A DNA stretch of 64,000 nt from an uncultured Bacilli bacterium (GCA_910583945.1 CAJTYF010000004.1:3597-67596), one strand, 5' to 3'. Positions 33,972-38,520 are shown, counted from the stretch's first letter. The notes: generated by a model from the letters alone, not told the origin. Translations and numbers: made by a program.

Positions 33972-34000
33972 ATTATTGGTCAGTCGCGACTGACCAATTT
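33972..34000. promoter_or_regulatory. 26-bp perfect palindrome AATTGGTCAGTCGCGACTGACCAATT upstream of pnkp (copy 1 of 2)
   Basis: Located ~55 nt 5' of the Pnkp start on the minus strand. A near-identical palindrome occurs at 38492-38520. Confidence 0.55.
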
Positions 34001-34137
34001 ATTGAACTTTTTTAAAAACCTATCTTGCTTTTTTAACAAAGAATTGTGCAGATAGTAATTGCACTTTTATTAACCTTTTTCACTAAAATTAACACTTTTT
34101 AAACCTTTCAATTATTTCTAATATATTTTAAATTATT

Positions 34138-34175
34138 ATAAACAAAAAGTGGAGCCTTTCGGCTCCTTCAGGGGG
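34138..34175 (-). terminator. rho-independent terminator-like hairpin (minus strand)
   Basis: On the minus strand the stem GGAGCC-GAAA-GGCTCC (plus 34151-34166) is followed by ACTTTTTGTTTAT. It is preceded by the conserved CCCCCTGAAGGAGC motif shared with the 52709-52745 hairpin. Confidence 0.45.
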
Positions 34176-34282
34176 CGAAATTTTTTCGCACCATTTTAAA
34201 TTAAAATATCATTTTTCCTTTATTTTTCTTATATTTTAGTTTATTTTTGATTAAAATTTACCAATTGATTTTAGCAAAGTTT

Positions 34283-34311
34283 ATGAATTTTAGCACCTAA
34301 ATAGCACCTAA
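34283..34311. repeat. left 29-bp direct repeat (candidate attL), contains TAGCACCTAA twice
   Basis: Directly abuts the stop codon of the first cargo gene (34314-34316). Confidence 0.6.
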
Positions 34312-34313
34312 TT

Positions 34314-35135
34314 TTATTTATGATTAAAAATTTCTAGTATTTTAAAATGATTGACTATTACTTTATCATCATCTTTTAAATCCTCTCTTATATATACGTT
34401 CTTTATATCTTTATAAAATTTTATCTCTTCATAAGTAAATTCTACAAACATTCTAAAGTTATCTTCTTTATCAACAATTAATGCTTGAAATTCCTTTGGT
34501 TTGTATTTTCTTTCGTTTCTTGAATATTCTGGATACCAATCTATTGCTCTAAAATCTCTTTTTCCTGTTAATATATTGTTTAAAACATCATCGTTAAATC
34601 TATATATTAAAGCATTTTCATATTTTGAATGTATTTTATTCCTATATCTACTAACAGGAACTTTTTGTTTTTCTAAATCTTTCATTCCAATAAACAATAA
34701 ATACTTTTGTACTCTTCTAAGATATTCAAGTTCTTGTTTACTATAATATTGTTCTTCATCTTTTGCTATACTGAATGATTCAGGGGAAGAATAAAGTGCA
34801 CTTACAACTTCTTCAAACGAATGAGCGTGACTATGCCCGACTACTGACTTTTTAATATATTTGCCATTTTCTTTCCAACCCATAAGATGCTTATAGGTAA
34901 AAGAATAATAAAATCCCGTAAAAGCAATGTCACCTAAAGCTTCAGAAAGCCTTGAATTAACTTCTAATTCATCTTTAGATTCTTTACTATTAAGTATTGA
35001 TTTTCCATTATAAAAATATACATATTCTAATGTCTGTCGTTCTTCGTCCCAAAATGGAGTTGGCAAATTATTTTTCTTAAATTTATCATATCGCTTAATA
35101 AATTCTTTATATTCTAATTCATTCATGCTTATCAC
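34314..35135 (-). CDS. hypothetical protein (element cargo)
   Basis: 273-aa ORF. No motif recognised. Confidence 0.5.
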   Translation of the reverse strand: MISMNELEYKEFIKRYDKFKKNNLPTPFWDEERQTLEYVYFYNGKSILNSKESKDELEVNSRLSEALGDIAFTGFYYSFTYKHLMGWKENGKYIKKSVVGHSHAHSFEEVVSALYSSPESFSIAKDEEQYYSKQELEYLRRVQKYLLFIGMKDLEKQKVPVSRYRNKIHSKYENALIYRFNDDVLNNILTGKRDFRAIDWYPEYSRNERKYKPKEFQALIVDKEDNFRMFVEFTYEEIKFYKDIKNVYIREDLKDDDKVIVNHFKILEIFNHK

Positions 35136-35592: not shown

Positions 35593-35649
35593 TATTTTAA
35601 ATCCTTTCTTTTCGGCTTATTTTCGGTTTAATATCGGCTTATTTTCGGC

Positions 35650-36831
35650 TTATTTCAAATTTTCGAAATATTTATCAGTTAAAATATAGTCAACATTTCT
35701 AATTTGCTTATCATCTAATCTCTTTAAAAAATCTTTTTCAATCCATTTTTTAATCCAGTTATTAGCAGTATCTAAATTGATTTTAAAATGATTGGCAATA
35801 TCTTTGGCTTTTATTTTGGTGTTGGTAATTATATAATTAGCCACCCATCTCTCTCTTTTATCTAACGTATCTATTATATTCATTTCTTCTTGGCTATTTT
35901 TGTAAATTTCTTTTACACGATTACCAACTGCTTCAAAAGTATTTGCCATAATAGATATAAAATATTCTAGCCATTCTGTAATATCGGCTTCATTTCTTCC
36001 AAAATAGAAATTATGGTGTAATCCCATTTGCAACGAATTATAGTATTCATCTATATTTTTATCATAAAATTCTTCCATAACATAGAATCCTTTTAAATCA
36101 TAATTGTGTGACTTTAAAATATATGTTGCGAGTAATCTTGAACAACGACCATTTCCGTCCCAAAAAGGATGTATTGTAACAAATTCATAAGCCAAAATAC
36201 CTGCTTTTATTGGAATCGGAATATCACTTGAATCTTTAGAATTAAATTCTTTTATCATTTGTTTAATAAGGTTCTCAACATCTTTTGCCTCTGGTGGCAT
36301 ATAAACAATTGCTCCACTAACAGAATCTGCAACTACATTTTGATCTTTTCTATAACTATTTTTATAAGTTAAATGCTTACCTGAGACTAAATTATGTACT
36401 TTAAGAATTAGATCTTCTGTTATGGTATTATTATTTTCTGCTTCTTTATTTAAATACATTAAAGCATTATAATAATTTCTAACCTCTAAAACATTTCTTT
36501 CATGCGAATCTTTATTATTTTCTAGCACTTCTTTTACTTCATTTAAGTTTAGATTATTTCCCTCAATTTTAGTAGAGTAATGAACCCTTTTTGCGATTGA
36601 TTCCTTTTTAATTTCTTCTTCAATAGAAACAGGAAGTTCTAATAAATCAACCACTTCTTTTGCTCGATTAATTTTTAATAAATCATTTACTATTTTATTT
36701 GTATAATTCCATTTTATATTCATCTTTTCCATTGTTACCTCCATTCTATTTTTTACTAGCCAAATTATATATAGGAAATTTTTTAAAATCGCCTTTTTCC
36801 TTTTTAGACATTTTTGAAAAATTCTCTTCAA
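35650..36831 (-). CDS. Fic/Doc-family protein with C-terminal winged-HTH
   Basis: Fic motif HPFWDGNGRCSRLL (HPFx[DE]GNGR). C-terminal RERWVANYIITNTKIKAKDIANHFKINLDTANNWIKKW is wHTH-like. The probable real start is the internal MEKMNIKW (~36730), which removes the overlap with the upstream ORF. Confidence 0.7.
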   Translation of the reverse strand: MKRIFQKCLKRKKAILKNFLYIIWLVKNRMEVTMEKMNIKWNYTNKIVNDLLKINRAKEVVDLLELPVSIEEEIKKESIAKRVHYSTKIEGNNLNLNEVKEVLENNKDSHERNVLEVRNYYNALMYLNKEAENNNTITEDLILKVHNLVSGKHLTYKNSYRKDQNVVADSVSGAIVYMPPEAKDVENLIKQMIKEFNSKDSSDIPIPIKAGILAYEFVTIHPFWDGNGRCSRLLATYILKSHNYDLKGFYVMEEFYDKNIDEYYNSLQMGLHHNFYFGRNEADITEWLEYFISIMANTFEAVGNRVKEIYKNSQEEMNIIDTLDKRERWVANYIITNTKIKAKDIANHFKINLDTANNWIKKWIEKDFLKRLDDKQIRNVDYILTDKYFENLK

Positions 36832-38104
36832 ATGAATAATAATTGTTAACTAATAAACTGATACAACATAGAATTTGATAATCTTCTTTATTATCTTCTT
36901 TTTTGCTTATATCACTTAAAATTTTTTTATCATTTGTTGACAAATAACCTTTCTTTCTATATTTTATTTGCTTAGCATTTATTATATCAATATCATTATT
37001 TCTATTCTTACAATTTATTTGACTTAAACTATCAGCAATGTTTATATACTCTCTATTTTTTGTTTCATCATAGACCTTTATAAACATTAATATCAACTGA
37101 TTTATTGAATCACATACTTCTTTGGTTAATTCTATATTTTTAAAACTTTTAATAATTAACTTTCCATTAAAATTATTCATGCCTATAAATTCTTCGGGTA
37201 CTAAATTAGCATATATACTGGTTTTTACCTCTTTATTTTCAAACTTGAAAAAACAAATCATATTATCTATTATTTCTTTTGAATAAAAATTATATAGTCT
37301 TTTACTGCTTTTAACAATTAAAAATATAAATTTATATTTATTGATTTGTATATAATATTTTTGCAGTTCTTTTATCTCATCTCCAAAATTCCCATTAAAT
37401 AATTTTATTAATCTATGCAAATTTTTCAAATCAATTTCAGATAGATCCTCATAATTCATGTCAAATTCAGTATTGAAAAATTTAAAAACTTGAACAATTT
37501 TCTCAAAATAACCTAATTGCTTATTAAATAAATCTATATTCTTATTTATTTTTTCTTGATTAACAAAAGGAAATTCTAATTTTACATCATCAATCATAAT
37601 ATATTGATATCTAAATAAAGATAAAATAAAATTTAAATCTTTTACACGTTTTTGAGGAGGACCTTTCAAGTCAATATGAACTTTATTATCTATAAAATGA
37701 ATTGTTATTGGACCAATAATAAATTTATCTTTTTTTGTTCCTATTGCTGTAAAATCTGAATAATACTTTTTATCTTCAATTACAATGTCTTTTTTTATTG
37801 TATTATAAGAAGTCCATTCACCTTTTATTGTAACTACTTCTTCATGCGTATCTTTAAGTTGAGCATAACTATATACATCTGCCATTTCTATATATTCCTC
37901 ATATTCATTAGCATTTACAACAACTTCTGTCTGAAAATTTTCAATTTTTCCAAATTCTGTTTCATTTATAATTCTTTTTCCTGCTTGCTTATTTGAGTTT
38001 TTATAAAAATTTATACAAACATTTTTAAAACTTAATACACCTTTATCATTTATTTCTTTTAATTTTAAAGATATGAATTTTTGCTTGTCATTTAAATTTT
38101 TCAA
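36746..38104 (-). CDS. hypothetical protein (452 aa)
   Basis: Long ORF, TTG start in the track. No motif recognised. It lies 15 nt downstream of the 127-aa ORF in a different frame, so it could be a separate gene or a frameshifted continuation. Confidence 0.45.
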   Translation of the reverse strand: MKNLNDKQKFISLKLKEINDKGVLSFKNVCINFYKNSNKQAGKRIINETEFGKIENFQTEVVVNANEYEEYIEMADVYSYAQLKDTHEEVVTIKGEWTSYNTIKKDIVIEDKKYYSDFTAIGTKKDKFIIGPITIHFIDNKVHIDLKGPPQKRVKDLNFILSLFRYQYIMIDDVKLEFPFVNQEKINKNIDLFNKQLGYFEKIVQVFKFFNTEFDMNYEDLSEIDLKNLHRLIKLFNGNFGDEIKELQKYYIQINKYKFIFLIVKSSKRLYNFYSKEIIDNMICFFKFENKEVKTSIYANLVPEEFIGMNNFNGKLIIKSFKNIELTKEVCDSINQLILMFIKVYDETKNREYINIADSLSQINCKNRNNDIDIINAKQIKYRKKGYLSTNDKKILSDISKKEDNKEDYQILCCISLLVNNYYSFEENFSKMSKKEKGDFKKFPIYNLASKK

Positions 38105-38118
38105 AATTTGGTATATAT

Positions 38119-38502
38119 CTACAGGTAATAAATTACAATAAAATATTTTATATCATCAATTGTTTTAAAATCAACTACAAATAATAGTGTCCCTTTTACT
38201 TCCTTTTGATACCCCTTTAAGGTTTCAACTTCAATTGAGAATGTATTAGTTTTTTTAAATTGTTTAACTTTTCTACCTTTTATTTGAACATCTATTTTTC
38301 CTTCATATAAATCATTAGTTTTATTTTCACCACTATATACAAATATATTTCCATCCCATAGAGGTGTTTTATCATTTGAATTGATATAAGGACTTAAACA
38401 ATCAGAATTTTTTAAGATTTCTTCTTCAATCTTATTAGTAGCAATTTTTTCTATGTCTGTTGTAGTCATTTTACACCTCACTTCTCTTAATTGGTCAGTC
38501 AC
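38119..38502 (-). CDS. hypothetical protein (127 aa)
   Basis: ORF whose start and RBS region overlaps the second copy of the 26-bp palindrome. Confidence 0.45.
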   Translation of the reverse strand: MTDQLREVRCKMTTTDIEKIATNKIEEEILKNSDCLSPYINSNDKTPLWDGNIFVYSGENKTNDLYEGKIDVQIKGRKVKQFKKTNTFSIEVETLKGYQKEVKGTLLFVVDFKTIDDIKYFIVIYYL

Positions 38503-38520
38503 GACTGACTAATTTATAAT
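38492..38520. promoter_or_regulatory. palindrome AATTGGTCAGTCACGACTGACTAATT (copy 2 of the pnkp-upstream operator-like site)
   Basis: 24/26 identical to the 33972-34000 palindrome. Lies at the 5' end of the 38502 gene. Confidence 0.5.

Follow-up and report, generated by a model that had tools for sequence, protein, structure and literature searches.

A 64,000-nt stretch of DNA from an uncultured Bacilli bacterium (GCA_910583945.1, CAJTYF010000004.1:3597-67596; hereafter the window, with a G+C content of 28% and coordinates counting from its first letter) carries two copies of one palindrome, i.e., site 1 upstream of the chromosomal polynucleotide kinase/phosphoesterase/RNA-ligase gene pnkp, and site 2 at the head of a Fic-containing cargo operon within a mobile genetic element. 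Both copies are very probably leaders of the type that precedes DUF1016/YhcG nuclease genes, in which the nuclease gene has been replaced by another gene. We base this identification on sequence comparison, because the same palindrome precedes DUF1016 genes or their relics in other genomes, is not conserved in front of other Pnkp orthologues, shows covariation between its arms, and has a counterpart within the DUF1016 open reading frame (ORF) itself.

On this identification, the palindrome is the 5′-leader version of a cis element belonging to DUF1016/YhcG PD-(D/E)XK nuclease genes (PDC-S02 in PADLOC; candidate phage defence), which most of these genes carry at fixed codons of the ORF (..IVQTLSxQLSW..) and one RF39-like clade carries in the leader instead. 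Integrative elements and an integration hotspot alike contain a variable "slot" that begins with a short module of putative promoter, palindrome, and Shine-Dalgarno (SD) sequence, and whose DUF1016 ORF has time and again been lost by deletion, shortened, or exchanged for another gene of defence or repair. Of such orphaned leaders, the window holds one before pnkp and another before a frameshifted 574-aa gene followed by a SoFic gene. If this is true, a conserved cis element is tied to a widespread family of candidate phage-defence nucleases, and small-genome gut Bacilli swap defence and repair genes that share one short leader, in integrative elements as well as in the hotspot; such leader-headed exchange would be useful for annotating slots in defence islands.

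The two palindromes of the window

The features needed to place both sites are the following:

33975..33998, minus strand: site 1, a perfect 24-bp palindrome (ATTGGTCAGTCGCGACTGACCAAT), chromosomal
38490..38513, minus strand: site 2 (ATTGGTCAGTCACGACTGACTAAT; ATTAGTCAGTCGTGACTGACCAAT in gene orientation), within the mobile genetic element
31708..33876, minus strand: pnkp, 722 aa from an SD-preceded ATG (Pfam AAA_33, Metallophos, and RNA_lig_T4_1)
36746..38469, minus strand: 574-aa gene, read as two ORFs (116/127 aa and 452 aa) because of a 1-nt deletion near 38153
35650..36831, minus strand: Fic gene (Pfam Fic; PADLOC SoFic, 6e-48)
34162..34175 (left) and 52736..52749 (right): 14-bp integration core GCTCCTTCAGGGGG, the 3′ end of an unannotated gene resembling a non-coding RNA (ncRNA)

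An earlier note on this DNA had described a perfect 26-bp palindrome just 5′ of pnkp. The symmetry is indeed perfect over 24 bp, and the 26-mer breaks at its outermost pair (T..T), its coordinates having been 2–3 nt off. The second copy, said to carry 2 mismatches and to lie at the 5′ end of the Fic-containing operon, was confirmed at 38490-38513; it differs from site 1 at 2 positions and is itself an imperfect palindrome. Both sites are upstream of minus-strand genes, site 1 being separated by 98–99 nt from the ATG of pnkp (33876-33874; SD sequence AAGGAGG) and site 2 by 21 nt from the ATG at 38469-38467, where the 574-aa gene starts. Site 2 therefore heads the cargo operon as proposed, except that the supposed 127-aa and 452-aa genes are one. 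A contig from elsewhere (L007; L-numbers denote contigs or loci from other genomes or metagenomic samples) contains the intact 574-aa ORF and is 99.96% identical, with one gap in 2690 aligned nt, the deletion near 38153 being a genuine frameshift or else an artefact of assembly.

The element extends over ca. 18.6 kb, from 34176 to ca. 52749. Contig L116, from another sample, represents the empty site and is 99.8% identical across pnkp, with the order glycosyltransferase gene, ncRNA-like element ending in the core and a terminator hairpin, ca. 150 nt, palindrome, and pnkp. Since this element-free contig retains the palindrome unchanged, site 1 is chromosomal and independent of the element, and the placement of site 1 outside and site 2 inside the element was thus borne out by both the junction cores and the empty site. 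L116 and the window differ at 5 positions in 2475 nt and are too alike to reveal selective conservation of site 1.

No further copy was found in the 64 kb when allowing up to 8 mismatches, and none of 100 dinucleotide shuffles of the window produced any match, so that the two sites are neither chance occurrences nor REP-like. About 190 kb of flanks from the loci described below likewise contained no further site with up to 6 mismatches. Repetitive extragenic palindromic sequences (REP) and the bacterial interspersed mosaic elements built from them (BIME) resemble the sites in being GC-rich palindromes within AT-rich intergenic DNA, but amount to tens to hundreds of copies per genome, versus two in 64 kb here and one per genome elsewhere, always in a gene leader. 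A REP-like dispersed repeat, one of the outcomes that the earlier note had held to be fatal to its proposal, was hence rejected by the copy counts in the window, 23 genomes, and the flanks.

The leader RNA around site 1 was predicted to fold stably (z = –4.2), while the hairpin predicted for site 2, the sense strand of which contains an A.C mismatch, was weak (z = –0.5). An extended –10-like box (TGcTATCAT; consensus match only) ends 14 nt upstream of site 2, and no canonical –10-like box was present in the 45 nt upstream of site 1; a promoter consensus scan was uninformative in DNA of this composition, with counts equal to those of shuffles. An intrinsic terminator was rejected, as AATTGGAAAGG, TTAAGAG, or TAATTGG comes after the stem, with no U tract, and a terminator scan was negative. 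Rfam scans (with gathering and E-value thresholds), which covered the window, both sites individually, the ncRNA-like attachment-site gene, and eight DUF1016 loci, drew only chance miRNA-like matches to the palindromes.

DUF1016/YhcG genes and relics behind the palindrome

A scan for the pattern TTRGTCAGTCRYGACTGACYAA, with one genome per species, yielded 23 loci, one per genome, all of them in related metagenome-assembled genomes (MAGs) of gut "Bacilli/Tenericutes" (one of the 23 records being described as a 1.46-Mb chromosome). Viral contigs gave no motif-family match. When oriented by the downstream gene, the start codon follows 16–21 nt after the site, and at 15 loci the site lies 16–20 nt before a 335–338-aa gene with DUF1016_N and a PD-(D/E)XK YhcG_C domain (PADLOC PDC-S02). 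Elsewhere other genes come next, i.e., those for a KAP NTPase and then Fic in L010, for a member of the UDG superfamily, sometimes with MazG, in L001, L004, and L015, and for a DUF2797 protein in L009. Relics of DUF1016 were observed as well, i.e., a frameshifted DUF1016 gene behind the palindrome (L002, L006, L020, L021), the first 8–10 DUF1016 codons fused to UDG or MazG (L015, L003:5912), only the first 3 and last 17 codons (L022), or the leader alone (L016). The lineage consensus in these RF39-like gut Bacilli MAGs reads AATTGGTCAG(T/A)C-NN-G(A/T)CTGACCAATT and lies between a –10-like box and the SD sequence.

A second palindrome of the same family was seen just 3′ of the DUF1016 stop codon in L038 (2214-2253), L065 (3592-3631; a 40-nt near-perfect palindrome of the GAC type), and L080 (1292-1315), and may represent the leader of a tandem copy that has since disappeared. 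Another idea, that the leader palindrome is a remnant of a truncated upstream DUF1016 gene, was rejected, since tblastn of the N-terminal regions against the upstream DNA returned only a palindrome-sized piece.

Pnkp orthologues at 64–70% identity (six loci in three contexts, one of which is beside the same ncRNA-like element) had no palindrome within 7 mismatches. Because the ca. 80 nt upstream of the window pnkp resemble, by eye, the upstream sequence of an orthologue, pnkp appears from this comparison to have been joined to the palindrome module directly behind the palindrome. Moreover, the 250 nt upstream of site 1 recur twice in L001, beside the palindrome of that genome, and thereby qualify as a shared hotspot flank.

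On the upstream side, five unrelated sequences join the same palindrome, many loci being integrative elements of the window type (with AAA_25, a 77-aa protein, and XRE) and others looking chromosomal. The ca. 100 nt upstream of site 2 are homologous to the region before DUF1016 in L008 and L002 and before KAP in L010. Homology between loci begins or breaks off at the palindrome, upstream as well as downstream of it, with different downstream genes behind the same upstream sequence and the same downstream gene behind five upstream regions; many deletions end just behind the palindrome, which occurs in cargo regions of mobile elements and beside the attachment-site hotspot. These observations would suit a DNA-level recombination or cassette-exchange site (acting via a recombinase, hairpin-mediated template switching, or palindrome-stimulated breakage), the regulatory look of which would be incidental. 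We nevertheless regard such a site as very unlikely, given that no recombinase is consistently adjacent, that cassettes are not flanked by two sites except in L038/L065 and L080, and that exchange cannot explain a co-varying palindrome at one codon position in intact ORFs across phyla (see below). Arms of 11–13 bp are also short for cruciform or SbcCD-type processing.

The integron attC site offers a specific precedent for an imperfectly conserved palindrome located a few nucleotides before interchangeable, promoterless-looking genes, with structure conserved more than sequence. An attC site, however, measures 57–141 bp versus 24–26 bp here, and the palindrome lacks the R″/L″-L′/R′ boxes, the extrahelical bases, IntI, and arrays, while also occurring within ORFs. 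It was rejected as a model for the sites, the integrases that are present being of the Tn916 and phage types, far from the site, and arrays being absent.

The earlier note had proposed that one dimeric regulator probably co-controls pnkp and the Fic cargo as part of a stress or phage-response regulon, and had named the XRE repressor of the element and an upstream XRE-cupin regulator as proteins to try. The relevant locus is:

38555..39551, minus strand: XRE-family repressor candidate (38994-39551; Pfam HTH_19/HTH_3) plus a short ORF that looks membrane-associated, both sharing the strand of site 2 and lying upstream of it

In its general form, this explanation takes the palindrome as the double-stranded operator of a trans-acting homodimeric repressor (either XRE protein or some other host factor). 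The palindrome has the size of an operator (24 bp) and near-perfect dyad symmetry through its centre; it follows immediately 3′ of –10-like boxes (by consensus match only) in most contexts, site 2 included; identical 22-nt sequences precede at least six unrelated defence or repair genes within one lineage; and XRE genes lie directly upstream in the window, L008, L010, L011, L014, L019, and L023. Cro/CI-type XRE operators and the C-boxes of restriction-modification systems likewise present a 20–24-bp dyad at or after the promoter of a defence or mobile-element gene, and an XRE gene is nearby in some of the present loci. They differ from the present sites, where no cognate regulator co-occurs, no autoregulatory copy exists, spacing and arms vary, homologues lie within ORFs, and each genome has a single site.

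On balance we judge an operator of this kind unlikely. The XRE cluster occurs in only 6 of 24 loci, and palindromes without a nearby XRE gene were found in L003, L013, and L018. None of the regulators has a site at its own promoter: the divergent promoter region of the window XRE gene (39553-39680, between it and a 79-aa gene) contains no palindrome copy within 8 mismatches, but four direct or inverted copies of TTGCRAC(T)n / AAGGTTGCAA, which are probably the real operators of XRE. The genome-wide search that had been suggested as a check on the regulon returned one match per genome in the 23 species representatives, always tied to DUF1016 or a relic of it, which indicates a local element and not a regulon, and Pnkp orthologues have no site. 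Neither the XRE proteins as shared regulators nor the stress regulon consequently found support. What stands of the proposal is that the leaders of two transcription units, one chromosomal and one on the element, share a conserved cis element, so that some shared control of pnkp and the Fic cargo is possible; the pnkp/Fic "regulon" itself largely dissolves if both sites are DUF1016-type leaders, a caution that shared palindromes alone do not establish regulons.

Covariation, the intragenic counterpart, and possible modes of action

Eighty metagenomic DUF1016 loci of 98–56% identity were fetched. The leader site reads TTGGTCAGTCGCGACTGACCAA at ≥86% identity, then TTGGTCAGACGCGTCTGACCAA, TTGGCCAGAC..GTCTGGCCAA, TTCTTCAGAC..GTCTGAAGAA, or TTTTTCAGAC..GTCTGAAAAA at 77–83%, and TTTTGCAGACAcTGTCTGCAAAA, TTGTGCAGAcgttaTCTGCACAA, or TTCCAGCCAgTGGTTGGAA in more distant leaders. 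As the proteins diverge, the stems differ by paired substitutions (GGTCAGTC, GGTCAGAC, GGCCAGAC, CTTCAGAC, TTTCAGAC, GTGCAGA, TTGCAGA, CCAGCCA), with at least six different stem sequences among the co-varying arms. Among 28 distinct leaders, double changes were found at 7 of 12 pairs, and 97% of the cells were paired, versus 86% after shuffling (0 of 500 shuffles) and 16–44% with a slid partner; these counts, like those for the intragenic copies below, do not separate an RNA fold from DNA dyad symmetry. Among homologous sites, whether in leaders or within genes, the centre or loop takes every length from 0 to 5 nt, and some stems grow to 15–19 bp by using unrelated flanks. The distance from the 26-nt hairpin to the ATG remains constant at 14–19 nt within the leader clade. 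In most contexts –10-like boxes, often TG-extended, end 10–19 nt upstream (consensus matches only); none was found for site 1 or the L002/L020 group.

DUF1016 genes outside the leader clade have the palindrome within the ORF, at the codons for ..P-(I/F)-(V/C)-Q-T-L-S-x-(K/Q)-L-S-W.. (ca. nt 255–330). Metagenomic examples are AATTCCAGACAcTGTCTGGAAAATT, AATTGCCAACCAcTGGCTGGCAATT, and AACAGACAcTGTCTGTT, the last of which keeps its pairing through F-to-Q and G-to-V amino-acid changes. The window itself and a number of plasmids provide further cases:

7143..7162, minus strand: TTGTGCACctaaGTGCACAA, in an intact DUF1016 paralogue (6432-7436), at codons ..EFVHLSAQLPW.. (synonymous-shuffle p = 0.007)
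9302..9328, minus strand: AATTGCGACAACAgTGTCGTCGCAATT, in a frameshifted DUF1016 paralogue (ca. 8856-9618); included in the intragenic covariation alignment
Burkholderia plasmid DUF1016 gene: GGATTGTGCAGACAcTGTCTGCACAATCC
Klebsiella plasmid DUF1016 gene: CAATTGTCGCGACAcTGTCGCGACAATTG
Pseudomonas plasmid DUF1016 gene: ATTTCCGAGACAcTGTCTCGGAAAT
Rhodococcus plasmid DUF1016 gene: ATTGCGCAGCAcccTGCTGCGCAAT
Moraxella plasmid DUF1016 gene: palindrome present
Nostoc plasmid DUF1016 gene: palindrome present

The intragenic palindrome thus spans genes of Proteobacteria, Actinobacteria, and Cyanobacteria. When compared with 300 synonymous-codon shuffles, 31 of 62 distinct genes beat them at p ≤ 0.01; no member of the leader clade was among these, and nearly all of the other genes passed. 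L093 and L096 fail this internal test yet have a strong leader hairpin. In 30 intragenic sequences, 10 of 13 pairs co-vary, a score that was reached by none of 500 shuffles. Leader and internal copies can be nearly identical across lineages, the leader of L061 matching the internal copy of L099 and that of L096 the internal copy of L102. Nearly every DUF1016 gene examined has the element, either internally or in its leader, and the clade at 64–66% has both; the leader-bearing gut Bacilli clade has lost the internal copy. The two DUF1016 paralogues of the window belong to other clades (ca. 34% and 46% identity) and their stems differ again, so that three palindromes of one family coexist in the window (sites 1 and 2 plus the two intragenic copies). 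The same 34-nt sequence TTTTTGATTGTTTATTTTAAAGATAYAGTTTTTT precedes both paralogues (repeats at 7541-7574 and 9887-9920).

As to how the element acts, we see roughly an even chance that it works as a stem-loop in the transcript. Such a stem-loop would begin a few nucleotides from the likely start site, end 3–8 nt before the SD sequence, and set the stability, processing, or translation of the mRNA of the following gene; it may do this by binding the cognate nuclease or some factor that recognises structure. If pnkp and the Fic operon are co-regulated at all, the cause would then be the cis hairpin that they have in common and not an XRE-type repressor. A transcript hairpin is favoured because pairing is kept and sequence is not, because loop length is free and stems are extended ad hoc, because the element sits either in the leader or ca. 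300 nt into the ORF, and because G.U outnumbers A.C in leaders (single-arm mismatches in the sense strand of 29 distinct leader sequences being G.U in 16, A.C in 5, and other in 5 cases). The same features speak against an operator: stems and centre length vary between close relatives, as expected of a hairpin but not of the half-sites of one conserved dimer, three different family palindromes coexist in the window, and homologous palindromes lie ca. 300 nt inside ORFs in distant phyla.

Stem-loops at the 5′ end of transcripts are known to stabilise or gate bacterial mRNAs in a gene-specific manner, as in the ompA, ermC, and aprE leaders. The present sites share with these leaders a predicted hairpin near the presumed 5′ end, ending just before the SD sequence, and compensatory pairing. 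Leaders of the ompA/ermC/aprE type are, however, not conserved across unrelated genes, whereas here one 22–26-nt sequence is common to different genes and has an intragenic homologue. A leader or intragenic hairpin is of a known kind; its family-wide, protein-constraining version tied to a candidate defence nuclease appears to be undescribed, as does the capture of such an element by other defence or repair genes.

Several observations pull the other way. The G.U excess shrinks to ca. 11:5.5 (about 2:1) when related sequences are counted as single events, and intragenic copies show no G.U bias (about 6:8 by eye). The palindromic symmetry usually reaches the centre, and C10/G13 in leaders and A24/T26 in intragenic copies are conserved though unable to pair in a hairpin, which fits double-stranded recognition or a sequence-specific loop. 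Repressor operators, too, classically sit right behind a –10-like box, and one 22-nt sequence before unrelated genes fits a sequence-specific binder as well as the spread of a module. Both the transcription start sites and the RNA fold are predictions. Finally, either window copy may be partly or wholly vestigial, because site 1 is without a –10 box and 98 nt from its ATG, and site 2 folds weakly before a frameshifted gene.

A third way of reading the same element is that the DUF1016 nuclease itself recognises it, as DNA or as an RNA hairpin, in an autoregulatory or self-neutralising pair that co-evolves one-to-one, comparable to a cis-encoded RNA antitoxin or to parS within parB; for sites 1 and 2 to respond, the genome would have to encode a cognate clade-I DUF1016 protein at another place. 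PD-(D/E)XK nucleases are commonly dimeric on symmetric sites. Nearly all DUF1016 genes examined having a leader or fixed-position internal palindrome, the sequence of which follows protein divergence, would be in line with such recognition, as would the frequent pseudogenisation of these genes, which is expected of a toxic product. We hold it to be quite unlikely all the same: the variable centre spacing speaks against a conserved dimer on duplex DNA, orphan sites persist before other genes with no adjacent DUF1016, the window paralogues belong to other clades, and a sequence search turned up no solved homologue of DUF1016. Type III toxin-antitoxin systems (ToxIN-like) also place a structured, co-evolving element right 5′ of a defence-associated nuclease, but use a tandem repeat array plus terminator, whereas the palindrome is a single hairpin and DUF1016 is a PD-(D/E)XK protein not known to be an RNase.

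Tentatively, and with the chances somewhat against it, a broader proposal may be formulated, namely that DUF1016/YhcG genes across Bacteria carry an unrecognised covarying element, a hairpin or palindrome under selection so strong that it dictates the amino acids of the conserved IVQT|LSxQ motif, and that it controls or neutralises the nuclease in cis (e.g., by autoregulation, or through an RNA serving as decoy or sensor). In one gut lineage, this element would have moved to the leader to become a portable control module that is now wired to further immunity and repair genes, Pnkp and SoFic among them. The palindrome sequence was not found in any paper of the searchable literature library, and the searchable literature on DUF1016/YhcG or PDC-S02 holds neighbourhood facts and no mechanism. 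In type I restriction-modification loci, DUF1016, Fic, and RhuM have been described as hitch-hikers (PMC9881135). No Protein Data Bank homologue of DUF1016 was found by sequence, and an AlphaFold model of a window DUF1016 paralogue (pLDDT of 56 from a shallow alignment of 73–79% identical sequences) gave only Foldseek matches at noise level (E > 0.01).

The integrative element and neighbouring genes

The element encodes an AAA_25 replication protein, a viral-Rep-like protein, an FtsK-like protein, Mob, a Tn916-type integrase, and a second tyrosine integrase, the integrase genes lying at 48241-49530 and 51372-52583. A 25-bp direct repeat (ATTTTAGCACCTAAATAGCACCTAA) is present at 34287-34311 and 52635-52659, just inside both element ends. 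It probably corresponds to the "29-bp repeats" by which the earlier note had delimited the element, and may represent integrase arm sites or the attachment sites of a nested element. No Pfam or PADLOC match was obtained for the 574-aa gene. The true start of the Fic gene is probably at 36744 or 36732, and the C-terminal region of its product gave a weak, sub-threshold match to a FeoC-like winged helix-turn-helix. The cargo also includes:

34314..35592, minus strand: a 146-aa ORF and a 273-aa ORF, neither of which matched any family (Pfam, PADLOC)

The kinase, phosphatase, and ligase domains of the Pnkp-Hen1 type are all present in pnkp, and a search limited to the downstream ORFs found no methyltransferase domain that would indicate Hen1 next to it. 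On the 3′ side of pnkp in the window (29852-31707, minus strand), ca. 800 nt without a long ORF are followed by a gene whose 346-aa product weakly matches DUF4160; in L116 (3658-4962), an 86-aa gene is called in this ca. 800-nt stretch. Elsewhere, pnkp was seen between a DUF4160 gene on its 5′ side and a DUF3800 gene on its 3′ side.

The ncRNA-like element, in the 3′ end of which the integration core lies, had no Rfam match. It is conserved and consists of a hairpin (TTAGCATGATAGATATCATGCTAA), then ...AACCAAAACCCCCTGA, and then a terminator hairpin, being located at ca. 52700-52835 (minus strand) and also at 34147-34175 in the window, at 560-672 in L116, and at 2850-2975 in L026, a distant genome in which it also adjoins Pnkp. 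Within the integrative element, the Rfam ssNA-helicase RNA motif was found at 45560-45609 (minus strand), upstream of the Rep-like gene, with 57 bits, i.e., above the gathering score. Finally, another recurrent palindrome of 23 bp, TGAAGTYCCAAnnTGGRACTTCA, was noticed at unrelated positions in these MAGs (L003:7166, L005:5859, L012:6452, L039:1940, L040:1490, L054:1698, L092:962, L104:1802, and L022:6079).

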